Part shown: piece after piece, positions 12,234-24,025 of the stretch
How positions within the stretch are numbered: position 1 is the first letter of the stretch
Layout of the letters: each line of letters begins with the position of its first letter
NCBI GenBank assembly: GCA_041937175.2
Contig: CP166615.1
Location: forward strand, 608,001-672,000
Reading direction: 5' to 3'
Source of the DNA: Limnothrix sp. BL-A-16
Lineage (GTDB): Bacteria > Cyanobacteriota > Cyanobacteriia > CACIAM-69d
Length of the DNA: 64,000 nucleotides
Made by a program: the position numbers and the translations under genes
The notes under the pieces: model-generated
The model's input: the letters and a program-made list of their open reading frames with translations, nothing else
Told to the model about the DNA's origin: nothing
Database searches by the model: none

Positions 12234-13168
12234 ACTCGCCCGCCGACCCCAACCCCCGCAGCCTTGGGGCCACGGCCCAAGCCGCGATCGAAAAGCATTG
12301 GGCCAAGGCCGGCCGCCACGAAGCCGCCGTCCTCAAAGATCAGGATCCCGAAGAGTTGCATCAAATGCGTGTGGCCCTGCGACGGCTGCGATCGGCCATG
12401 GTGGGTTTTGCCTCGGCCATTGAGCTGCCCAAACGGGCCAGCGAGCGGGCCGTGGGTCAAGTGGCCAGAATTTTGGGGGAACTGCGCGATTTGGACGTGA
12501 TGGACGAAACCTTGCGCGATCGCTACCTCCAAAACCTACCCCCGGAAGAACAGCCCCTTTTGCAAACGGTTCGCGAAGAGCTGGCCGGCCAGCGCCAAAA
12601 AGCCTTCGGTCGTGTCAGCAAAACCCTACAAAAACGCGAATGGCCCGCCATCAACACGGCCCTTGGGCGTTGGATTGCCCAGCCGCGCCTGCGGCCCGCC
12701 GCCGATTGGCCCGCCGTGGTGGTGGTTCCCGATTTGCTGTTGCCCATTTTGTCCCACTGGTTAATGCATCCCGGCTGGTTGGTGCAAACCGAGGGGCGAT
12801 CGGTCACGGATCTTTCGTTGTTGGAGTGGGCGGTGATCCATGACCTGCGCAAGGTGGCCAAACGGGTGCGCTATCAAATGGCCCTTTTCACCGATTTCTA
12901 TGGCAGTGAATACGAGCGATTGCTCGACGCGATTGGCGATATCCAAACCGTGTTAGGCGATTTGCAAGATATCGCCGTGCTGGAAAACTTTTTGGTAAAA
13001 ACGATCGGGATTCAGTGGGCCACCGATGCGCCCGCCTGGGCTGGTTTGCTGGAGCAACAGCGCGATCGGGCTTGGGAAAACTGGCTGAAGCTCCAGGAGC
13101 AGTTCGATCGCCCCAATCAACGGGAACGGATCCGAGACGTGGTGAATCGCCCCCACCTCAACTCCTAG
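12212..13168 (+). CDS. CHAD domain protein
   Basis: DPEELHQMRVALRRLRS, LGELRDLDV, IHDLRK.AKRVRY, LGDLQD; GTG start inferred. Confidence 0.9.
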   Translation: MADDQPLDSPADPNPRSLGATAQAAIEKHWAKAGRHEAAVLKDQDPEELHQMRVALRRLRSAMVGFASAIELPKRASERAVGQVARILGELRDLDVMDETLRDRYLQNLPPEEQPLLQTVREELAGQRQKAFGRVSKTLQKREWPAINTALGRWIAQPRLRPAADWPAVVVVPDLLLPILSHWLMHPGWLVQTEGRSVTDLSLLEWAVIHDLRKVAKRVRYQMALFTDFYGSEYERLLDAIGDIQTVLGDLQDIAVLENFLVKTIGIQWATDAPAWAGLLEQQRDRAWENWLKLQEQFDRPNQRERIRDVVNRPHLNS

Positions 13169-13406
13169 AGGATGTCTGAGCAGTTCCCGACCAACGCATC
13201 AGGTCACCGGATCAGCACCACCTGCTCACTCATCAACTCACGGCTACCGCTTCCTTGGGCTATCCTCCACCATGCCACGCAAGTCATGTAGTCCAGTGAG
13301 TCATCTTTCTCAAGGATTCTTCTGCAAGGATTTGAAGTTTTGTGGTCAAGTATTTTATAAAATCTTTAAAAAGAGAAACACAAAAGTAAACATCAAGGAT
13401 TGACGT

Positions 13407-13435
13407 TTGACAGGTCATAGGGACAGCTCTAAGGT
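13407..13435 (+). promoter_or_regulatory. Putative sigma70-type promoter of the cas operon
   Basis: TTGACA (13407-12), 17 nt, TAAGGT (13430-35), 26 nt before cas5 ATG. Confidence 0.65.
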
Positions 13436-13461
13436 GTGTTTAACCTCCGTCTGAATTTTGT

Positions 13462-14103
13462 ATGAAAATTCGCCTTTGGGGAGAGCGGGCATTATTTGCC
13501 ATTCCCGCCTATAAGGTTGAAGCGCGTTCTTATCCCATTCCACCACCAACCGCCATTGAAGGGCTGCTGCGAAATCTCTATTGGCATCCGGGTTTTGAGT
13601 GGCGCTTGAATCGAATTGCAGTTAATTGCCCGATCGTCTATGAATCCGTAACCCGAAACATGGTGCAGGACATTGCACCCAGCCAAGAAACCCTGGCAGC
13701 GGGCAAGCGCTACACCATCGAAGACGATCGCACCCAGCGCACCCTATCGCTGTTGCGCAACGTGGACTACACAATCGACTGTGCCCTTTGGCATCCTGAG
13801 CCGATCAAGCAATCGCGCGGCAACCGAATCACGATCGAGCGCCTGCAAAGGGGCCAGCATTGGGCCCAGCCCTATCTGGGCCAGCGGGAATTTACGGCCC
13901 ATTTGGCCTTGCTGCCGCCAGACACCAAGTTGCGGGGCCACCCGACCCTGGGCCGTGAAATGTTGTTGCCTGTTATGCCCCGAGCAATTCGGTTTACCCC
14001 AAAAGGCACAACGGTTGAGTGGTTCCAGCCCACCTTGCGCGACGGCGTTTTGGATCTACGGAACTCTGAGCGACAGGAGAGCAGTGATGCTACAGGAACT
14101 TGA
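13462..14103 (+). CDS. cas5: Type I-C Cas5 (Cas5d)
   Basis: LWGERALF..P..KVE.RSY..PPPTA..GLL..LYWHP; RTQR..SLLRNVDY; GQ...QPYLGQREF. Confidence 0.93.
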   Translation: MKIRLWGERALFAIPAYKVEARSYPIPPPTAIEGLLRNLYWHPGFEWRLNRIAVNCPIVYESVTRNMVQDIAPSQETLAAGKRYTIEDDRTQRTLSLLRNVDYTIDCALWHPEPIKQSRGNRITIERLQRGQHWAQPYLGQREFTAHLALLPPDTKLRGHPTLGREMLLPVMPRAIRFTPKGTTVEWFQPTLRDGVLDLRNSERQESSDATGT

Positions 14104-15859
14104 CCAGCTCGCCAATTACCTAGAGACACCCGCAGTTCAGGGAGGGCTGCCCCCGATCGGGTACGAAAGCGCCACCGTGGAATTCGCGATCGACCTGAAC
14201 AACAGTTCAATTGTGCCCCTGTATCAAGAACCCGACCCCAAACGCAAATCCACAACCCAACAACTGGGGCGGCGGGTTCTCACCACCATCCGGCTCAGCA
14301 ACCATGCTCCAGCCCTACTGGATGACAAGTTGAAATACATCCTGGGGACGGGTTCCAATGGCCCCAAATGTCAACCGAAGTATCGTGAACTCTTGGGGTT
14401 GTTGCTGTCCAGTGCCGATCCCCCGTTTCCGTGGGCCCCGGCTATTCAGCAGTTGTTGGATTGTCCCCAACTAGCCGAAGCGGCCGCAATCCAAACAGGC
14501 TTGCCCTTGGCAGAGGTCGCCGACAAGCGCTGCCGCTTGCTGTGGGACGGTGAGCCGGTGGTCAACGATCCACAGGTGCGTATTTGGTGGCGCAATCACG
14601 TGCTGGAGAGGGACGGGGGACAGCAGGGGAACTGTTCCATTACTGGACAAACGGGATTAATCGTTAGCAAAACAATCCCAGCAACAGTTAAAGGCATTCC
14701 CGGCGCACAGCTCTCGGGAGCCAAACTGAGTTGCTTTGACAAGCCATCGATGTGTTCTTGGGGGCTTCAGCAAAACGCTAATGCTCCCTTGCTGGCCTCA
14801 GTGGGATTACGCAGTCATGCGGCCTTGCAAGTTCTGATTGAGGACAAGAACCACCACGCCAAACTCGGCAATCAGCTCTGGGTGTTTTGGGGCACGGAAG
14901 GCGAAGGCATCAAGGAAGAAATGTGGCAGGAGCAACCTGCGGGAGCTATGTGGCGCGACCCATCAGCATTCACCCAAATCATTGGGGCTTTTGATGACGC
15001 GACCAAATCGGGCACGCTGCCCCCCCGCAAGCTAGACCGGCCCTTCTTTCTGGCATCCCTGAGGGCCCATGGCGCAAGGATTGCAATCACCCGTTGGGAA
15101 ACCACCACCATTCGCCACATGGTGGATCGGCTGCAATGGTTTCGATCGGCCCAATGTCCGCATCAACGTTGGCGGCCCTTGGCCCTGTGGCAACTCCGGC
15201 AAGTGGCTTTTCACAAAGCACCCAAGCCCCCGGAAACCGCCTACATCGATGATGCACTGCTGGCCTGTGCGCTACAAAACGCCCCCTTACCCGATCAATA
15301 TGCCCAGCGGCTTTTGGATCGGCTTTGTGCAGAAGGCGACCTGGAAACCTACTGGAATCCCAAAAAAGTGGCTTGGGTTTTGCTCCAGCGGATCCAAGCA
15401 CTGGCCCTATACCTGGCATCTCGCAACATCAACATTCCTATGGACAATCAATCGTTACCGTTTGCTTTGGGGCAAGCCTGTTTTTGGATGGCCCAGGCCC
15501 AAGCCCGGGCCCAAAAGCGTCCCTTGGCAGCGACCAATGTGGTGCAAGCGCTGCGAGGAATTTTGCAGTCACCTTCCCGAGTTGCTGGGTTGTTCCCGAA
15601 TTTTTTCAACCATTTGAAAGAACTGGGATCTGTCCATGATCTTTACCTGGAGCGATTTTCACGGGCGATCGCCGCAACGGGTACAACGGGCGACTGTTTC
15701 CCCGAGAGTTTTTCCGTGGAAGACCAGGCTTTGTTCATGGTGGGGTTTGCCATGGCCTGTGCGGACAACGCGGAAAACCGCCACGCGGCCGCCCAGAAAA
15801 AACAAGCGGCCCAAGCTGAGATCGCTGACGACTCTGAAATTTTTGATCTGGAGGATTAA
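14087..15859 (+). CDS. cas8c: Type I-C large subunit Cas8c (Csd1), divergent
   Basis: MLQEL start with AGGAG upstream; CSITGQ, VKGIPG...GAKLSCFDK, GARIAI, FPESFSVEDQALFMVGF; lies between cas5 and cas7. Confidence 0.9.
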   Translation: MLQELDQLANYLETPAVQGGLPPIGYESATVEFAIDLNNSSIVPLYQEPDPKRKSTTQQLGRRVLTTIRLSNHAPALLDDKLKYILGTGSNGPKCQPKYRELLGLLLSSADPPFPWAPAIQQLLDCPQLAEAAAIQTGLPLAEVADKRCRLLWDGEPVVNDPQVRIWWRNHVLERDGGQQGNCSITGQTGLIVSKTIPATVKGIPGAQLSGAKLSCFDKPSMCSWGLQQNANAPLLASVGLRSHAALQVLIEDKNHHAKLGNQLWVFWGTEGEGIKEEMWQEQPAGAMWRDPSAFTQIIGAFDDATKSGTLPPRKLDRPFFLASLRAHGARIAITRWETTTIRHMVDRLQWFRSAQCPHQRWRPLALWQLRQVAFHKAPKPPETAYIDDALLACALQNAPLPDQYAQRLLDRLCAEGDLETYWNPKKVAWVLLQRIQALALYLASRNINIPMDNQSLPFALGQACFWMAQAQARAQKRPLAATNVVQALRGILQSPSRVAGLFPNFFNHLKELGSVHDLYLERFSRAIAATGTTGDCFPESFSVEDQALFMVGFAMACADNAENRHAAAQKKQAAQAEIADDSEIFDLED

Positions 15860-15862
15860 GCC

Positions 15863-16750
15863 ATGAGTCAAGACACTGAAATGCACTTGGATCCAACTTT
15901 ACGCCACGATGCGGTGTTGCTGTTTGACTGTGAACGGGGAAATCCGAATGGCGACCCAGACGCAGATAATCAACCCCGCATTGATCCCTACTCGGGGCGC
16001 GGGTTGGTGAGCGATGCTTGCGTGAAGCGGAAGCTGCGCGATTACGTGGCGATGGTGGCCAGCGATCGCCCTGAATACAAAATCCTGATTGAGCAGGGTG
16101 CGGTCATCAACAACCAGATTGAGCGCGGCTATATCGAGAGCGGGGCCGAAACCAGCGGTTCCAAAAAACCCAAGGAAAATTCCCCAGAACACAGGGCCCA
16201 ACAAGACCAGGTACGAGACTGGTTTCGTAAGAATTTCTTTGATGTGCGGATGTTTGGGGCGGTGTTGTCCACGGGGCGCAAGGTGGGTCAGGTGTTCGGG
16301 CCGGTGCAGGTGGCTTGGGCCATGTCTCAGGATCCAATTCGACCGTTGCGATCGACCCTAACGCGCTGTGCGGCCACGGAGGAAAAGGATGGTAAGGAAA
16401 ACAAAACCATGGGGGCGAAGTGGCTGTTGCCCTATGCGCTCTATCGCACGGAGGTGACCTACAACCCCTATCGCGATCGGGCGAGTGAGTATGTGACGAG
16501 GGAGGATTTGCAATTTCTGTGGGATGGATTGTTGCGGGCCTGGGATTTTGATCGTTCGGCGGCACGGGGCACGATGGCCTGTCGAGGGTTGTATATCTTC
16601 ACGCACCGGGCAAAGTTTGGGAATGCACCGGCCCATCAGCTTTTTGAGTCGGTGACGGTGACTCGCGTGGCGGACAAACCCCTATCGTTTCGGGATTATG
16701 CGGTGCAGGTGAGTGAACCACCGGAGGGGGTGAAGTTGACGGCGCTATGA
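15863..16750 (+). CDS. cas7: Type I-C Cas7 (Csd2)
   Basis: LLFDCERGNPNGDPDADNQPRID, VSDACVKRKLRDYV, FFDVRMFGAV, GPVQ, TMG.K, DRSAARG, GNAPAHQLF. Confidence 0.96.
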   Translation: MSQDTEMHLDPTLRHDAVLLFDCERGNPNGDPDADNQPRIDPYSGRGLVSDACVKRKLRDYVAMVASDRPEYKILIEQGAVINNQIERGYIESGAETSGSKKPKENSPEHRAQQDQVRDWFRKNFFDVRMFGAVLSTGRKVGQVFGPVQVAWAMSQDPIRPLRSTLTRCAATEEKDGKENKTMGAKWLLPYALYRTEVTYNPYRDRASEYVTREDLQFLWDGLLRAWDFDRSAARGTMACRGLYIFTHRAKFGNAPAHQLFESVTVTRVADKPLSFRDYAVQVSEPPEGVKLTAL

Positions 16751-16965
16751 GCGCGAAGGGGAAGTGCTGTTTTTGGGTGATCGCCTGAATCCCAAGCGGA
16801 ACAACGAGTTCAGGGCAATTTCTGAAATTTCGGTTCGCGATTCTTGCGCTGTCTGAGTTTGGGCGCTGAATCGCTGGTTCAGTTGCCTGGTTTTGACCTG
16901 GTTTGGCTGGGATCGCGAATCGTGCCTCTCAACTACTGATGTTGCAAGACTTTGGAAGCCAAGCA
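16751..16965 (+). promoter_or_regulatory. CRISPR leader
   Basis: Non-coding 215 bp 5' of first repeat, with recurring gcgcgaa/ttcgcg motifs; repeat orientation (3' ATTGAAAC) places the leader on this side. Confidence 0.7.
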
Positions 16966-18905
16966 GCAAAATCCCCCGCTCCGGCGGGGCCGCAATTGAA
17001 ACGGTGTGGACATGAACGGCAACCCCGTGATCGCACGCAAAATCCCCCGCTCCGGCGGGGCCGCAATTGAAACCACTCAGGAAATCGTGTTCCCAAATCC
17101 CTCTGGTGAGCAAAATCCCCCGCTCCGGCGGGGCCGCAATTGAAACCGTGTCGGTACAGTTGGCAATCCACTCGCCCAATCCGCAAAATCCCCCGCTCCG
17201 GCGGGGCCGCAATTGAAACCGTATCGGTGACGCGGTAGCTAGCCCCCCATTTGCGGGCAAAATCCCCCGCTCCGGCGGGGCCGCAATTGAAACCACCAAT
17301 CCGGACAAAGCAGATCCCTGGTATGTGGGCAAAATCCCCCGCTCCGGCGGGGCCGCAATTGAAACAATGCCGCCATCCATGCCCACCGATTTGGCCCCGA
17401 GTGCAAAATCCCCCGCTCCGGCGGGGCCGCAATTGAAACACCGGGACAGCCAAGCAAGAGCTGGCCCAAGGGCTGCAAAATCCCCCGCTCCGGCGGGGCC
17501 GCAATTGAAACTGGCTCAATTTCCTGGAAACCTTTGCCACACCGGGCACTGCAAAATCCCCCGCTCCGGCGGGGCCGCAATTGAAACTTGCTGGCTGGCT
17601 GATGGCTCGATCGCCTCATCGCAAAATCCCCCGCTCCGGCGGGGCCGCAATTGAAACTTCGGCGGTGGGGGCGGGGGCGGCGATTGGGGCGGTGCAAAAT
17701 CCCCCGCTCCGGCGGGGCCGCAATTGAAACAGCCCTTAGTCTGGTCTCCAGATTGAGGGCTTTTTGAGCAAAATCCCCCGCTCCGGCGGGGCCGCAATTG
17801 AAACGCTTTTTAACGGTTTTTGGAGAGGGTCGCAAGTGACGCAAAATCCCCCGCTCCGGCGGGGCCGCAATTGAAACCCTATCAAGCTCCCGCCCTGGCA
17901 TGAGAAGCGCCTAGCAAAATCCCCCGCTCCGGCGGGGCCGCAATTGAAACATCGTCAGTGAGCAGGTTTTTGCTGTTGGTGGTCATGGTGCAAAATCCCC
18001 CGCTCCGGCGAGGCCGCAATTGAAACGTGCCCAACTCGGGGCCATTCGCGTTGCGTTTTAATGCAAAATCCCCCGCTCCGGCGGGGCCGCAATTGAAACA
18101 GAGTCAGCTAAAAGAGTTCTGCACCTCAGTGCTATGCAAAATCCCCCGCTCCGGCGGGGCCGCAATTGAAACACTCAGGGCGTTTGCGAGCCGGGGGACT
18201 CGGTGCGGCAAAATCCCCCGCTCCGGCGGGGCCGCAATTGAAACATCCTTATCTGATTGCGACGGGACGATCATGTAACCGCAAAATCCCCCGCTCCGGC
18301 GGGGCCGCAATTGAAACCCACGTAACCCCGGCCAGCTCGGTAACTTTCCCGGTCAGCAAAATCCCCCGCTCCGGCGGGGCCGCAATTGAAACACGATGGA
18401 TTGTCAGTCCATGAGATATACAGGGCAGGCAAAATCCCCCGCTCCGGCGGGGCCGCAATTGAAACACCAGCCAACTGACTCGCGGCGACTACCTCTACGA
18501 CGCAAAATCCCCCGCTCCGGCGGGGCCGCAATTGAAACCCATCCAAGCGATCGCGCCGCCGTCACCGACACCTGCAAAATCCCCCGCTCCGGCGGGGCCG
18601 CAATTGAAACATGTCGCGCCAACTGGGCGGCTTGAACTGTACAAGCAAAATCCCCCGCTCCGGCGGGGCCGCAATTGAAACGATCTCGGGGAACCCGCCC
18701 GCACCTCGGGCCGCTTGCCCGCAAAATCCCCCGCTCCGGCGGGGCCGCAATTGAAACTAGGTAGACAGAAAACCGTTTGTGGAAGGTGTCATGCAAAATC
18801 CCCCGCTCCGGCGGGGCCGCAATTGAAACAGCCAGGGTCTTGATCCGCTCGGCCGCCTGATTGAGCGCGCAAAATCCCCCGCTCCGGCGGGGCCGCAATT
18901 GAAAC
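16966..18905 (+). CRISPR. CRISPR array, 27 repeats of 37 bp (GCAAAATCCCCCGCTCCGGCGGGGCCGCAATTGAAAC), 26 spacers of 33-39 bp
   Basis: Counted directly; only repeat 15 differs (G>A at 18011); internal hairpin CCCCGC-TCCG-GCGGGG. Confidence 0.99.
17731..17765 (+). terminator. Intrinsic-terminator-like structure forming spacer 11
   Basis: AGCCCTTAGTCTGG-TCT-CCAGATTGAGGGCT 14-bp stem (two G-U pairs) with a T5 run at 17761-65. Confidence 0.7.
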
Positions 18906-18915
18906 ATAACAACCT

Positions 18916-21000
18916 ATGAAAAAAACACCGATTAAAACATCTCAACCCCTCGCCAGACCCAACCAATTACTAACCACCCATCTTCAAGAAACCGCCAACT
19001 TTTCAAAACAAATCATTGCTCCCCATTCCCCCCCTTCCCTCCAATCGATCGCCTACCTCATTGGCGCATTACACGACCTTGGCAAAGCCAATCCTCAATG
19101 GCAAGCCAAACTGAATCGCCCAAACTCCGCCTTGCACGATCGCGTTCCCCACGCCGCCCACGGCGCATGGGTTGCCCTTGAACAGCTCAACCGAAATCCT
19201 GAAGGAGCCACCGCCAAAGCCATTGCCCACTGCATCGCTGCCCACCACACGCGCTTACGAAATTGGGGCGATCGGGAAGGAAAAATCTACGAAACCGAAA
19301 CCGTTGCTCAAACCTGTTGGGATCTTTTAAGACAACTGGATTCTGAGCTTCACGAATCCATCTTGCAAGCAGCCGCCAACAGCCATGAACTCCCCCACAA
19401 CAGCCAGGGTGAAATGACCGTTCGCTTGCTCTATTCCGCCCTCATTGAGGCCGATCGCTGCTCTGCGGCCGCAATTCAACCCGCCGCCTTTCCCGCTTCC
19501 TTGCTGCTTCAGCCTTCTCCTCCCGCCCCCGTTTGCCAACCTAAAGATCAATGGCGCAATTTATTTGCACAGCATTGCCAGCGATTAGCTGAACAACCGC
19601 CCGGCTGGTATCGAATTACTGGCCCCTGTGGTGTTGGCAAAACCCAAGCTTCCGCCCAAGCCATCGCTCAACATATTCAACACAATCAGATGCGCGGGCT
19701 AATCTTTGTGGGGCCGCTGAAATCCGTCATTGAACAGACCGCCCATCACTATCGCCGCTGGTTTGGCGCTGAACAGGTGCTGGAACATCACGGCGATTTT
19801 GATAGCAGTCAAGATGCCGACTATCGCGATCGCTGCGCCCGTTGGAATAGTCCCGTCATCTGCACAAGCGGCGCACAGTTCTTTGATTCACTGCTGAGCG
19901 ATCGAGCAGGGCGTTGCCGCAAGCTTCAGCAATTAATTGGCCGAGCCATTGTGATTGATGAGGCTCAATATTTACCACCTCATTTGGCTGTTCCTGTTCT
20001 GTCAGCCCTCAACACTTTGGTTCAACAATTTGGTTGCACAGTTGTGTTGATGTCAGCCACAAATCCCGCCTTTTCTGGGGTTGCAAAGGTACTGGAAGAG
20101 GCCGGCAGTCCGCTGCCACCTTGGGTTGATGTGGTGCAACCGGATGAAGTCAAGTCTCTGTTTGCTGCCATGACCACAACGAGCTGGCGCTTGGGCGGCC
20201 CCATGAACTGGAACGCGATCGCGAAAGATGTGCAGTCTGCGGGTTGCACTTCCGTGGCCACGATTGTAAATACAACCGCCCTAGCCCGAACTGCCGCAAT
20301 TCAACTGCAAGAATCATTGGCCGATTGGACAATTGCCCACCTTTCGGCGCGGATGTATCCCCAACATCGTGGCCAAACGATTCAGGCAGTACGCCAGGTA
20401 ATTCAACGGGGCGATCGCATTTTGCTGGTCGGTACTCAGGTTATTGAGGCCGGCGTTGATCTGGATTTTCAGCGTCTCTACACCCAAATGGCTCCGTTAG
20501 ACTCCCTGTTGCAGCGGGCGGGGCGATGCGATCGCAATGGTTGTCATCCTGGCTCTGTCGTCACCATTTTTGAGACGGGCCAGGCTTTTGATGTGCGCCA
20601 AACAGATATTGCGGTCACTCGCCCACTGCTGGAGAAAGCTATTGCATCCACCGATGGAATGCTTGAGGCGATCGATCAGTTCTATAGGACTATCTATAGT
20701 CGCGATCGGATCCAAACGGGAATTGAGATCGAGCGTCTGCGTCATTACTGGCAATTTGGTGATGTGGCTGACCGAGCTAAAACGATTGAAGAGGGCGATC
20801 GCATTCGGGTGGTCATTCCTAATTCAGATCTCGATCTGGCCAAGCTATCCAATCAAAAATTAACCTGGAAAGATTGGCGAGAAATCAGTCGCTACTCAGT
20901 TTCTATCCCCCTCAAATATCAAAAAAGTATCGAATTTTGTGCCAATGGCTTGCCCGTCTGGCGCGGTGGATATGACCAATTTGGTTGGGTTGATCCTTAG
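18916..21000 (+). CDS. cas3: Cas3 HD nuclease-helicase
   Basis: LTTHL, LHDLGK, HAAHG, AAHH, LIEADR; GPCGVGKT, LEHH, IDEAQ, LMSAT, VNT, TQVIEAGVDLDF, QRAGRCDR. Confidence 0.96.
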   Translation: MKKTPIKTSQPLARPNQLLTTHLQETANFSKQIIAPHSPPSLQSIAYLIGALHDLGKANPQWQAKLNRPNSALHDRVPHAAHGAWVALEQLNRNPEGATAKAIAHCIAAHHTRLRNWGDREGKIYETETVAQTCWDLLRQLDSELHESILQAAANSHELPHNSQGEMTVRLLYSALIEADRCSAAAIQPAAFPASLLLQPSPPAPVCQPKDQWRNLFAQHCQRLAEQPPGWYRITGPCGVGKTQASAQAIAQHIQHNQMRGLIFVGPLKSVIEQTAHHYRRWFGAEQVLEHHGDFDSSQDADYRDRCARWNSPVICTSGAQFFDSLLSDRAGRCRKLQQLIGRAIVIDEAQYLPPHLAVPVLSALNTLVQQFGCTVVLMSATNPAFSGVAKVLEEAGSPLPPWVDVVQPDEVKSLFAAMTTTSWRLGGPMNWNAIAKDVQSAGCTSVATIVNTTALARTAAIQLQESLADWTIAHLSARMYPQHRGQTIQAVRQVIQRGDRILLVGTQVIEAGVDLDFQRLYTQMAPLDSLLQRAGRCDRNGCHPGSVVTIFETGQAFDVRQTDIAVTRPLLEKAIASTDGMLEAIDQFYRTIYSRDRIQTGIEIERLRHYWQFGDVADRAKTIEEGDRIRVVIPNSDLDLAKLSNQKLTWKDWREISRYSVSIPLKYQKSIEFCANGLPVWRGGYDQFGWVDP

Positions 21001-21025
21001 CTGACTGAGGCCGATCACCTGTCAA

Positions 21026-21562
21026 TCAGCGGGTCAAAGGAGCAGCACCATACCAACCTTGGAGATAGGTTTGCAGCATGGCGGCGGCCGTCGTGCGGCT
21101 GGGGGCCCGATCGGGCATAGACCACCACCCCCAAGCGTGATCGGGCGATCGCCAAAAGGCCTGGTGGGACAGGGGTGGATCGGCCCAAAACTGCGCCCGC
21201 CCGGCCCCCAACCAAGCGGAACTGTGGTGCGTCCATTGATCGTGGCTGAACCGATAAATTGGCAGTCCTCCCGGCAGCGCCACCCCCCAACCATCCCAGG
21301 CAAACACCGCCCGCACTCGCCCACCGCGCCGCTGCCAAGCCTGAGCGGCTCCCAAGGCCGCCACCACTCCCGCACTGAAGCCAATTAGCCCGATCGCCCG
21401 TTGGGGATCGATCTCCCGCAGCGCCTCCAGCACCCGATCGCCCCGATAGGTAGCCTCCCAAATCACCAAAGGTTGCGGCCAGGCGGGTTTCCAGGTGGCT
21501 GCTAAAAACTGTTCCGTCGCCGATCGATCCGCAAAGCCGGGACAAATGCAACAAATCGGCAT
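21026..21562 (-). CDS. Hypothetical protein with alpha/beta-hydrolase-like GxSxG motif
   Basis: ICPG, LIGFSAGVVAA, DGWGV, SHD.WTH.SS, HQ.FWRSP; start MPICC inferred. Confidence 0.75.
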   Translation of the reverse strand: MPICCICPGFADRSATEQFLAATWKPAWPQPLVIWEATYRGDRVLEALREIDPQRAIGLIGFSAGVVAALGAAQAWQRRGGRVRAVFAWDGWGVALPGGLPIYRFSHDQWTHHSSAWLGAGRAQFWADPPLSHQAFWRSPDHAWGWWSMPDRAPSRTTAAAMLQTYLQGWYGAAPLTR

Positions 21563-21960
21563 GGCGGCCTTGGTTCGTTGGGTCTGATCCCTCTGGATTG
21601 GAAGATCGTGAGCGAGTTGACCGTTATTTTGAGGGTCATGAATTTGAGAACCAGAGGCTTGATTTTCCCCATGGAGACAATTCCAAGAATTCCAATATTT
21701 TGCAGACCTATTTAAATTTTTCATCGAAATTGTTACCCAATTTTTGATTGATCTTTGCGTTTAGTGACCAAGCATTACAAAAAGATAAAAGTCCTGATCA
21801 AGATCTCCAAAGAAATTTGTCTTCTTCTCAAGAATTTCCCTTAACTGATGCCGATTGACCAACTGAAATCTGATTCCGCTTTCATAATAGAAATGAATCC
21901 CCCCATGAGGCATTTGCTGTGGCTGCGTCTTCCCAAAAGGCTGAAGGTCAATCCCCCCTG

Positions 21961-23211
21961 ATGGCAACCCAAATCAGCGCGATCGACCCATCGGAAGCCG
22001 AAACTGGGCCCGGTGGTGATCGGGTGGCGGTTTTGCTGATGGGCTATGGCGAGGTGGAATCCTATGCGGATTTTGCCAATTACAACGAACAGGCTTTGAA
22101 CCTGTTAACTGCCAAGTTTGCTCCGGTTCCTCAATGGGTTTATCCGCCTTTGGCAAAATTATTGGCGGCTTTTGATTTGCATGAGTGGAGTCACCAGCAC
22201 GGTCAGTTTATTTCCCCCCACAATGCCATTTTTGAGCGTCAACGATCGGGCATTGAGCAAGCACTCAAACAACGTTGGGGCGATCGCGTCTCGGTGTTTA
22301 AGGCGTTTAACTTTTGTCGTCCCCATTTGCCAGAGCAAGTTTTGGCAGAAATTCGCGATCGGGGATTTAGCAAGTTACTGATTTATCCCTTACTGGTGGT
22401 GGACTCGATTTTCACCAGTGGAATTGCCATTGAGCAGGTCAACCGGGCCTTGAGTCAGTTAACCGATGGCGACACCCATTGGGTGCGATCAATGCGCTAT
22501 TTCCCGTCGTTTCATGACCAGGCTAGCTATATTCAACTGCTGGCGAAGTTGGTGAGCGAAAAAATTGATCGGGACTGGCGATCTCACTTCTTGCCGTCGC
22601 AAATTGGCATTGTGCTGCTGAATCATGGTTGTCCCCACGAAGCCAAGGGGTTTGTGTCAGGAATTGCTGAAAGCCAAGCCCTATATGAATCGGTGCGTCG
22701 GGAGCTGATCACTCGCTATCCCCTGATTTCGATCGGCTGGCTCAATCACGATACGCCCATGATCGATTGGACACAGCCCAATGCTCAATTGGCGGCTCGC
22801 AATTTAATTGAACTGGGAGCCAAAGCAATTTTGATGGCCCCGATCGGGTTTGCCACCGAAAACCATGAAACCTTACTGGATGTGGACCATATTTTCCTAG
22901 CGCTCCAGCGTCAATATCCTGAGGTGGTTTATCAACAATTGCCCTGCGTAAATGATCACCCTGAGTTTTTGGCCATGGCGGCGGATTGGGCTGATCCGCT
23001 GATTACGGAGTTATTGGCAGAAACCAGCGCTGTAATTCACTTCGCCGGGTTCGATCGCTCCAGCCTTGATTCCGCGCATCATCACCACCAAAGCCATAGC
23101 CATGATCATGGTCATGATCACAGTCACGATCACGGTCATGCTCATGGTGACAATCATAGCCATCACGGCCATTCCCATGATCACGCTCATCATCAACATT
23201 CCCATCATTAA
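21961..23211 (+). CDS. Ferrochelatase-family chelatase with His-rich C-terminal tail
   Basis: AVLLMGYG, LIYPL, NHG.P, WTQP, PIGFATENHETLLDV, CVND.PEF; tail HHHHQSHSHDHGHDH... Confidence 0.85.
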   Translation: MATQISAIDPSEAETGPGGDRVAVLLMGYGEVESYADFANYNEQALNLLTAKFAPVPQWVYPPLAKLLAAFDLHEWSHQHGQFISPHNAIFERQRSGIEQALKQRWGDRVSVFKAFNFCRPHLPEQVLAEIRDRGFSKLLIYPLLVVDSIFTSGIAIEQVNRALSQLTDGDTHWVRSMRYFPSFHDQASYIQLLAKLVSEKIDRDWRSHFLPSQIGIVLLNHGCPHEAKGFVSGIAESQALYESVRRELITRYPLISIGWLNHDTPMIDWTQPNAQLAARNLIELGAKAILMAPIGFATENHETLLDVDHIFLALQRQYPEVVYQQLPCVNDHPEFLAMAADWADPLITELLAETSAVIHFAGFDRSSLDSAHHHHQSHSHDHGHDHSHDHGHAHGDNHSHHGHSHDHAHHQHSHH

Positions 23212-23221
23212 GGTTTCAAAT

Positions 23222-24025
23222 TCAAGGTTTCAAATTCAGCGATAGTTGCAGAATTGAAGCGGGATGATTCGGTGTGGGAATTGGCTCGGGACTGGTGGTT
23301 TGGGCTGGGCAATATTGTTTGTAATGACACTGATCGCAATGGGTTCCGGGATTGGGTTCCCAGGCGCGATCGGTTCGTAATCGCTGGGCCAAGTCTGCAA
23401 TCACCGCCTGGGCTGCGATCAACCGTTCTTCAGTGACGGGAATTCGCACCGATTCCCCGGGCCGCAAAAAAATGAGGTTGATGTATTTCAGCTCCCGTTC
23501 CCATTGTTGATTGATGGCGATCGCGTAGAGGCCCACTTGCATCGTGAGCTGATCAAAATCTGGCTCCACAAATTGCCGTGAGGTTTTGTACTCAATTAAT
23601 TCGAGGGAGTCTAAATCAAACCAATCGAGGCGATCGAGCCGACCCGTGAGGGCAAATTCCAAGTCATTGATTTGTAATCGACCTTGAATTTTGGCCTCCG
23701 TGGCCAGGGGTTTGAGGAAGCGATCGCTCGGTTCAATCCAGTGATGGAAATAGCGCACCAAAATATCGTAGCCCTCGGCAATTTGGCGCTCCGTGAGACC
23801 AGCGGTTTCTTGAGTCCAGCAAGCATCAATCCAACTGAGTCCTGGTTTTTGGGGATAGCTATAGTCCCAATCGCGGTAAATTCGCGTGAGTGCCCCATGG
23901 AGCGATCGCCCTAGGGCCGCGCCGCCAAAACCCGCCGTCGGAATTTTATATTCATAGCGAAATTGATATCGAGCGGGACAGGTTTGGTAGGTGGTTAATT
24001 TGGCCGGCGAGAGTCGATAGGACAT
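23222..24025 (-). CDS. RecB/Cas4-like PD-(D/E)XK nuclease with four Cys
   Basis: LSPAKL..Y.TCP, G.SLH, LTGRLDRLD, IEYKTS, Q.GLYA, CDQCHYKQYC. Confidence 0.9.
   Translation of the reverse strand: MSYRLSPAKLTTYQTCPARYQFRYEYKIPTAGFGGAALGRSLHGALTRIYRDWDYSYPQKPGLSWIDACWTQETAGLTERQIAEGYDILVRYFHHWIEPSDRFLKPLATEAKIQGRLQINDLEFALTGRLDRLDWFDLDSLELIEYKTSRQFVEPDFDQLTMQVGLYAIAINQQWERELKYINLIFLRPGESVRIPVTEERLIAAQAVIADLAQRLRTDRAWEPNPGTHCDQCHYKQYCPAQTTSPEPIPTPNHPASILQLSLNLKP

Follow-up and report, generated by a model that had tools for sequence, protein, structure and literature searches.

A terminator-like phage hairpin matched by a spacer of a type I-C CRISPR array in Limnothrix sp. BL-A-16

A 64,000-nucleotide (nt) stretch of the cyanobacterium Limnothrix sp. 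BL-A-16 (assembly GCA_041937175.2, contig CP166615.1, positions 608,001 to 672,000 of the forward strand), referred to here as the window, carries a CRISPR array whose eleventh spacer, spacer 11, folds into a hairpin followed by a run of U residues. The type I-C genes cas5c, cas8c, cas7c and cas3 were all matched at this locus (Table 1), with only Cas7 and both Cas3 domains passing the curated family cut-offs. The cas5c-like gene additionally contains a Cas5 N-terminal domain (TIGR02593) that scores above its own cut-off, and the cas8c/csd1-like open reading frame (ORF) is open from 13673, with the TIGR01863 match beginning at residue 143 of the long frame; the likely start of this gene is the in-frame ATG at 14087, which is preceded by GGAGAG. 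No consensus promoter and no plus-strand terminator were found in the presumed leader by motif scan. In agreement with the gene order given in the initial annotation, cas3 lies downstream of the array, its ATG being separated by only 10 nt from the last repeat, which is undegenerated (window 18906-18918). Homologues of cas3 were detected in 27 of 400 other genomes of the class (best identity 39%), and in none of the 19 homologue loci that were fetched and scanned does an array abut the gene; at one of them (L025) an array lies about 770 nt off, apparently on the 5' side. As judged from these loci, an array adjoining cas3 appears to be an unusual arrangement.

The array itself is highly regular. 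All but one of its 27 repeats are identical, and every one of the 27 genomic copies of the repeat lies within 16966-18905. The change in the sole variant, repeat 15, produces a C/A mismatch in the middle of the 6-base-pair (bp) repeat hairpin, and processing between spacers 14 and 15 might suffer as a result. The repeat ends in ATTGAAAC, a terminal sequence that is usual in type I repeats and gives rise to the 5' handle. When 60 other genomes of relatives of the host were searched, neither spacer 11 nor the repeat was present in any of them. The cas1, cas2 and cas4 adaptation genes of a type I-C locus were not found here, and the genome, which is scored as 100% complete, gave no matches to the Cas1/Cas2 families PF01867, TIGR00287 and PF09827. 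Because no Cas1 or Cas2 was found, the array is probably no longer growing, with spacer 11 the record of a past event. A lone Cas4-like nuclease ORF, the only one found, lies at 23222-24025 of the window on the minus strand; its TIGR00372 score of 48.7 bits stays under the cut-off of 65. Roughly 2.2 kb and a ferrochelatase-like gene separate it from the end of cas3, which is on the opposite strand. Elsewhere in the genome (C1, near 2,132,000, 3,247,000, 3,264,000 and 4,394,000) there are at least three further large CRISPR-like arrays, for which a k-mer scan counted about 42, 25 and 40 repeats, plus one array of 7.

Table 1. Features of the CRISPR locus, in coordinates of the window.
Feature	Position	Strand	Description
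cas5c-like gene	13462-14103	+	NCBIfam TIGR01876, E 3e-18; its 66.7 bits fall short of the curated cut-off (85)
cas8c/csd1-like gene	14087-15859	+	TIGR01863, E 2.9e-45, 154.9 bits, below the cut-off of 218.65
cas7c/csd2 gene	15863-16750	+	TIGR02589, E 3.3e-74, 249.8 bits, above the cut-off of 182.25
Presumed leader	16751-16965	+	Between cas7 and the first repeat; assigned by position only
CRISPR array	16966-18905	+	27 repeats (37 nt each) separated by 26 spacers (33-39 nt)
Spacer 7	17440-17474	+	Matches the source phage contig of spacer 11 with 7 mismatches of 35, 5' TTC
Spacer 8	17512-17550	+	Matches the source phage contig with 4 mismatches of 39 (positions 6, 30, 36, 37), 5' TTC
Spacer 10	17658-17693	+	Differs from the related phage contig at 3 of 36 positions, 5' TTC
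Spacer 11	17731-17767	+	37 nt, 37/37 copy of a phage intergenic hairpin plus T-tract
Stem-loop of spacer 11	17731-17761	+	5' arm 17731-17744, loop 17745-17747, 3' arm 17748-17761
T5 tract of spacer 11	17761-17765	+	Its first T is the partner of A17731; GA and the next repeat come after the tract
Repeat 15	17990-18026	+	The one variant; its hairpin has A in place of G in the 3' arm
cas3 (HD nuclease + helicase)	18916-21000	+	TIGR01587 (E 2.7e-35) and TIGR01596 (E 3.9e-24); each exceeds its cut-off

When spacer 11 was folded on the plus strand, it formed the 14-bp stem, 3-nt loop and U5 tract that had been described in the initial annotation. The structure has a minimum free energy (MFE) of -22.6 kcal/mol (z -5.75) and accounts for 0.72 of the ensemble; none of 200 dinucleotide shuffles was as stable, and the best MFE among the other 25 spacers is -14.7 kcal/mol. 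At its base the stem consists of the pairs A-U, G-C, C-G, C-G and C-G, and it includes two G-U pairs. As the same annotation had stated, these non-Watson-Crick positions pair on the plus strand only: on the minus strand they become A/C mismatches, giving two internal loops and an MFE of -15.1 kcal/mol. In the repeat-spacer-repeat context, the predicted centroid structure retains the spacer 11 hairpin together with both repeat hairpins. The two repeats that flank the spacer carry no mismatches, and its length lies within the array range of 33-39 nt. Since no second copy was found in the host genome at up to three mismatches, spacer 11 is neither self-targeting nor prophage-derived. It combines a stable, GC-rich stem-loop with at least four U among the eight nt directly 3' of it, as is customary for an intrinsic terminator, and it does so on the inferred transcribed strand.

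Transcription of the array from the plus strand, as originally proposed, is well supported, with the strongest evidence coming from the protospacer adjacent motifs (PAMs) and further indications from the repeat end ATTGAAAC and from stop-like repeats on the minus strand. With the spacers read on the plus strand, a 5' TTC stands beside all four protospacers that were found (those of spacers 7, 8, 10 and 11), and since TTC is given as the type I-C PAM in two earlier studies (10.1101/2022.06.15.496202; PMC8406640), this argues for plus-strand transcription. On the minus strand, 13 of the 27 repeats pass a scan for terminator-like hairpin-plus-T sites. The minus-strand repeat reads CCCCGCCGGAGCGGGG followed by GATTTTGC, so that a polymerase transcribing the array in antisense would run into one stop-like signal after another. 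It could nevertheless be imagined that the palindrome arose by chance, that the hairpin was inserted as something other than a spacer, or that the array is read from the minus strand, making a plus-strand hairpin irrelevant. Nothing beyond the prior speaks for this explanation, with an evalue-mode Rfam search of 16000-19500 yielding no matches, and so no CRISPR-DR family by which to orient the repeat. The stability of spacer 11 relative to its shuffles, the PAMs found in the plus-strand sense in four out of four cases, the hairpin-plus-T character of almost half of the repeats on the minus strand and a perfect, PAM-flanked match to a phage all stand against it, and we consider it extremely improbable.

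This phage match came from an exact scan of IMG/VR with a 27-nt core of spacer 11, in which a single viral contig was hit, belonging to an uncultured phage (24,773 nt; about 55% complete by CheckV). Across its full length the spacer is identical to the contig (37/37), with TTC directly 5'. No CRISPR repeat flanks the match, which makes it unlikely that the contig is a chimera with host array DNA. The protospacer begins 24 nt past the stop codon of an ORF of 91 amino acids (aa) that has no family match, and the final A of the spacer doubles as the first base of the start codon (ATG) for a 355-aa protein with a match to the head maturation protease phrog_976 (E 2e-76); the hairpin, the U-tract and both neighbouring genes lie on one strand. 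Named phage records and plasmid records were rejected as sources, as blastn of spacer 11 returned only two partial hits (E about 6) and five partial hits (E about 5), respectively, which is chance level. The initial annotation had supposed that the spacer was captured from a terminator of an invader, and had proposed BLASTN to see whether its protospacer lies downstream of a phage or plasmid gene. Capture from an invader's terminator-like hairpin is supported by the perfect match, the TTC PAM, the intergenic sense-strand position behind the small ORF and the compensatory changes in a related phage that are described below. At the level of sequence, these matches identify spacer 11 as a normal, PAM-selected type I-C spacer copied from the intergenic hairpin plus U-tract of a tailed phage.

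The position of the PAM also accounts for the orientation of the element. Because TTC lies 5' of the phage hairpin on its sense strand, the spacer was inserted with the hairpin in the terminator-competent orientation on the transcribed strand of the array. How often such an event is to be expected can be gauged from the phage contig, where 720 37-mers, counted over both strands, are flanked by TTC; three of them reach a folding energy of -20 kcal/mol or lower, and the spacer 11 site ranks second. This corresponds to a strong-hairpin capture rate of about 0.4% per acquisition, or about 0.1 expected per array of 26 spacers, so that the capture of a hairpin is uncommon in one array and inevitable across many.

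The hairpin is preserved in a second phage. In another IMG/VR contig, which encodes a protease 80% identical to that of the source phage and has a completely different upstream gene, the hairpin aligns without gaps, and all 14 pairs are kept, five of them being invariant, three changed on one side and six on both sides, with none broken. As a control, sliding the 3' partners by one column left pairing at 50-64%. The related hairpin (MFE -22.4 kcal/mol) retains the TTTTTG tail and has an ATG within 3 nt. Since several of the stem pairs are G-U in both phages, the hairpin appears to be an RNA feature of the sense strand with a conserved structure. When further relatives were looked for, a metagenome scan returned the same two contigs under other names and a scan of genome contigs returned none. 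The position and form of the phage hairpin fit a terminator that follows the small ORF. The gap between the hairpin and the gene behind it leaves no space for a promoter, and a second small hairpin and short conserved blocks (CAAACCT, ACCCTTA) are found upstream.

Spacer 11 is accompanied by other spacers with matches to the same phage group. Spacers 7, 8, 10 and 11 (17440-17767) stand close together in the array, all of them directed against this one group. The phage contigs are hit as well by spacers of two of the further arrays noted above (e.g. 38/38 and 37/38). In light of the matches of spacers 7, 8 and 10 and of these two further arrays, the phage group can be regarded, on present matches, as a real and repeated target of the host lineage. 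The protospacers of spacers 7, 8 and 11 lie on one strand of the same contig; seen from protospacer 11, the other two are on its PAM side at a distance of about 8-9 kb, and this pattern of strand and position is compatible with primed acquisition begun by spacer 11. Of the four mismatches between spacer 8 and the phage (L004:1502-1540), three are at positions 6, 30 and 36. Type I Cascade flips out every sixth position and leaves it without a partner. Since these three mismatches fall on such positions, spacer 8 may be nearly fully effective against this phage in spite of them.

The effect that the hairpin might have in the array depends on how the host treats structures of this kind. The host genome (4.56 Mb, 55% GC) contains 5,235 copies of GCGATCGC, presumably the cyanobacterial HIP1 repeat. 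We scanned it for hairpins ending within 2 nt of a run of at least four T, and counted as comparable to spacer 11 those sites whose stem runs uninterrupted for at least 12 bp, whose loop is 3-8 nt long and whose next 8 nt include five or more T. This gave 43 sites genome-wide, spacer 11 included. Although ORFs of at least 120 aa cover 80% of the genome, 38 of the other 42 sites lie outside them; a co-oriented ORF is present on the 5' side of 28 of these 38, and 14 of the 28 are within 150 nt of the stop codon of that ORF, in an ORF map that is crude and with an intergenic location meaning that the elements are used or tolerated there and giving no efficiency. Many of these host sites share the same kind of tail (TTTTTG...). 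From this we infer that spacer 11, as it stands in the array, has the form of the host's own intrinsic terminators.

No boxA-like motif was found in the leader (16751-16965) at up to two mismatches, with seven matches elsewhere in the window. For Rho, the best family match in the genome reached 22 bits against a cut-off of 509, which fits the absence of Rho from cyanobacteria that is stated in two studies (PMC12642595; PMC7843447). A phage ORF of 183 aa (L002:469-1020, minus strand) matches the Rho_N domain PF07498 (E 4.6e-6), while the host is without Rho. In Synechococcus elongatus (S. elongatus), PMC12642595 describes U-tract ends after hairpins as acting as intrinsic terminators, at which readthrough drops with more U and with more consecutive U. 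Taking the form of spacer 11 together with this host setting, we put the chance of measurable termination there at about one half.

Our overall best explanation, which we hold with roughly even confidence, is that the phage-derived hairpin in spacer 11 causes partial polarity in the array. The spacer offers a GC-rich stem base and five consecutive U, and the GAAAC of the repeat would serve as the upstream A-rich tract, so that in this host, which lacks Rho, RNA polymerase would probably terminate at spacer 11 part of the time. Transcripts that end in the U-tract, without the downstream repeat, would give no complete CRISPR RNA (crRNA) 11 and no crRNAs 12-26, and terminated transcripts would also stop short of cas3. 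The expected outcome would be a partial polarity and not a full block. Within 13000-22000 the only promoter-like site detected is at 17160-17189, upstream of spacer 11, with none between spacer 11 and cas3. Because there is no such site after spacer 11 and the cas3 ATG lies 10 nt past the last repeat, cas3 is probably made from array read-through and would then also be attenuated, and the 5' end of its mRNA may be made by processing of the precursor of the crRNAs (pre-crRNA).

A number of observations weigh against such polarity. Spacer 11 was not listed by a simple consensus terminator scan, which requires at least five T in the 8 nt of the tail: with the stem read as 14 bp the tail is TTTTGAGC, with four T in 8, and with the stem read as 13 bp it is TTTTTGAG, with five T in 8. 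The U-tract is short, consisting of five U and then GAGC. The conservation of the hairpin rests on only two distinct phage sequences, and in both of them the hairpin stands 0-3 nt from the ATG of the head protease (L002:1476-1540, L008:1440-1505), with its 3' arm holding the only purine-rich, Shine-Dalgarno-like stretch (GAGGG in the source phage, GGGG in the relative). Because the hairpin abuts the start codon, the phage must either read through it or use it as an element of a 5' untranslated region (5'-UTR). It may thus be a conditional or partial terminator, or a 5'-UTR hairpin acting in translation control, and the arrangement suggests that the head module is controlled through regulated read-through or at the level of translation; the intrinsic termination efficiency of the hairpin may accordingly be modest or conditional. 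On the host side there is no sign of decay from disuse, with cas3 intact and 15 of the 16 downstream repeats equal to the consensus, and a promoter of cas3 may have been missed by a scan for the sigma-70 consensus, from which cyanobacterial promoters often differ. Finally, RNA contigs from two public runs cover only 16401-16859 and 19022-19400 (parts of cas7, the leader and cas3), the array lying outside their coverage; one run contains contig pieces of both cas7 and cas3, which neither shows nor excludes read-through.

Several of these points would also be expected if the captured hairpin were functionally silent in the array, with near-complete read-through leaving the array and cas3 unaffected. 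The short U-tract, the absence of the site from the simple scan listing, the need of the phage for transcription or translation across an element placed 0-3 nt before its protease gene, and the intact repeats and cas3 downstream are all in keeping with silence, and with about 3 of the 720 TTC-flanked 37-mers folding at -20 kcal/mol or below, capture by chance would need no functional reading. Yet comparable hairpins are nearly confined to non-coding host DNA (38/42) and mostly follow co-oriented ORFs (28/38), which argues that the host polymerase responds to them; the host is without Rho; and five consecutive U after a stem of -21 to -23 kcal/mol fits the class that terminates in S. elongatus (PMC12642595). 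We therefore regard functional silence as a tentative alternative, one that may hold but that we would not expect.

If the partial polarity that we favour were only minor, the hairpin might act instead on the guide itself, the -22.6 kcal/mol self-pairing of crRNA 11 hindering Cas7 loading or target pairing. Structure within transcribed arrays lowers the abundance and activity of crRNAs in other systems, namely Cas12a arrays (PMC6610086) and Cas6 substrates in Synechocystis (PMC5741207). Moreover, protospacer 11 and its PAM are unmutated (37/37), as against 7, 4 and 3 mismatches for spacers 7, 8 and 10, and this is what weak selection for escape would give. The perfect match is, however, equally explained by a structural constraint on the phage hairpin, and both flanking repeat hairpins are intact in the predicted fold, so the processing signals would not be masked. 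We found no data on the loading of structured spacers by type I-C Cascade, though no search was aimed at this exact question. A weak guide as the principal consequence of the hairpin is in our view improbable.

At the other extreme, polarity might go further than the partial effect proposed here. In such a scheme cas3 would lack a promoter of its own and be made only from whole-array transcripts, and the terminator in spacer 11 would set how much Cas3 and how much of the 15 older crRNAs is produced. A single acquisition would have throttled the whole interference arm and the loss of cas1/cas2 would have frozen that state, and phage terminators beside a PAM on the sense strand would be 'poison' protospacers, weakening whichever array takes them up. 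We think this unlikely.

Spacers are taken from invaders regardless of the content they encode, and for this reason arrays must sometimes import transcription signals. Here the import can be followed back to a precise origin, a phage hairpin of conserved structure whose PAM forced its orientation in the array. The host is without Rho, carries cas3 immediately after the array and yielded no adaptation genes by which new spacers could be added, a setting that makes any effect unusually visible and easy to test. If spacer 11 terminates transcription, a single spacer could create polarity in immune memory and in the supply of Cas3, whereas if it does not, it is an ordinary spacer with a well-documented origin. 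On sequence grounds, attenuation of spacers 12-26, attenuation of cas3 and poor loading of the guide are all plausible.

Compared with known systems, the locus resembles the type I-C system of Desulfovibrio vulgaris in its cas5c, cas8c, cas7 and cas3 families, its 5'-TTC PAM and a repeat ending in ATTGAAAC. It differs in its repeat length of 37 nt, in an array that is placed between cas7 and cas3 and does not close the operon, in the lack of any cas1 or cas2 match in the genome, and in Cas5c and Cas8c scores below the NCBIfam cut-offs. The intrinsic terminators of cyanobacteria, described in PMC12642595 and PMC7843447 as a GC-rich hairpin followed by at least four U in eight, share with spacer 11 the GC-rich hairpin that is directly followed by a U-tract. 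They are found at the ends of transcription units, whereas spacer 11 lies partway through a non-coding array, ahead of cas3.

Array polarity, in which spacers far from the leader are expressed less and work less well, is also a feature of premature Rho-dependent termination that is relieved by boxA/Nus, as outlined in a preprint on a type I-C array (bioRxiv 10.64898/2026.07.09.737519). Unlike the polarity proposed here, that polarity depends on factors and is not tied to one spacer, and the present genome has neither a Rho match above the cut-off (22 bits vs 509) nor a boxA-like motif in the leader. Spacer-dependent RNA structure that alters crRNA yield is likewise known from PMC6610086 and PMC5741207, where the structure disrupts the repeat hairpin, whereas spacer 11 folds on itself and both repeat hairpins are predicted to stay intact. 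Keyword searches of open-access text returned no bacterial case in which a single spacer had been traced to a phage terminator hairpin and shown to terminate its array, although searches of this kind cannot show that none exists.

A further parallel comes from the Sulfolobales, for which it was proposed that spacers carry transcription signals into arrays and that Cbp1 keeps transcripts from starting or ending inside them (Deng et al. 2012, PMC3315313; for the Cbp1 model see also Blombach et al. 2024, PMC10883916). As with spacer 11, spacers derived from invaders can there import promoter or terminator motifs that threaten a long pre-crRNA. In the Sulfolobales the signals consist of archaeal motifs, T-rich or resembling a TATA box, that were deduced by statistics and against which a repeat-binding protein acts, whereas spacer 11 is a single bacterial hairpin-plus-U element with an identified protospacer, a structure conserved in the source phage and no known counteracting factor.

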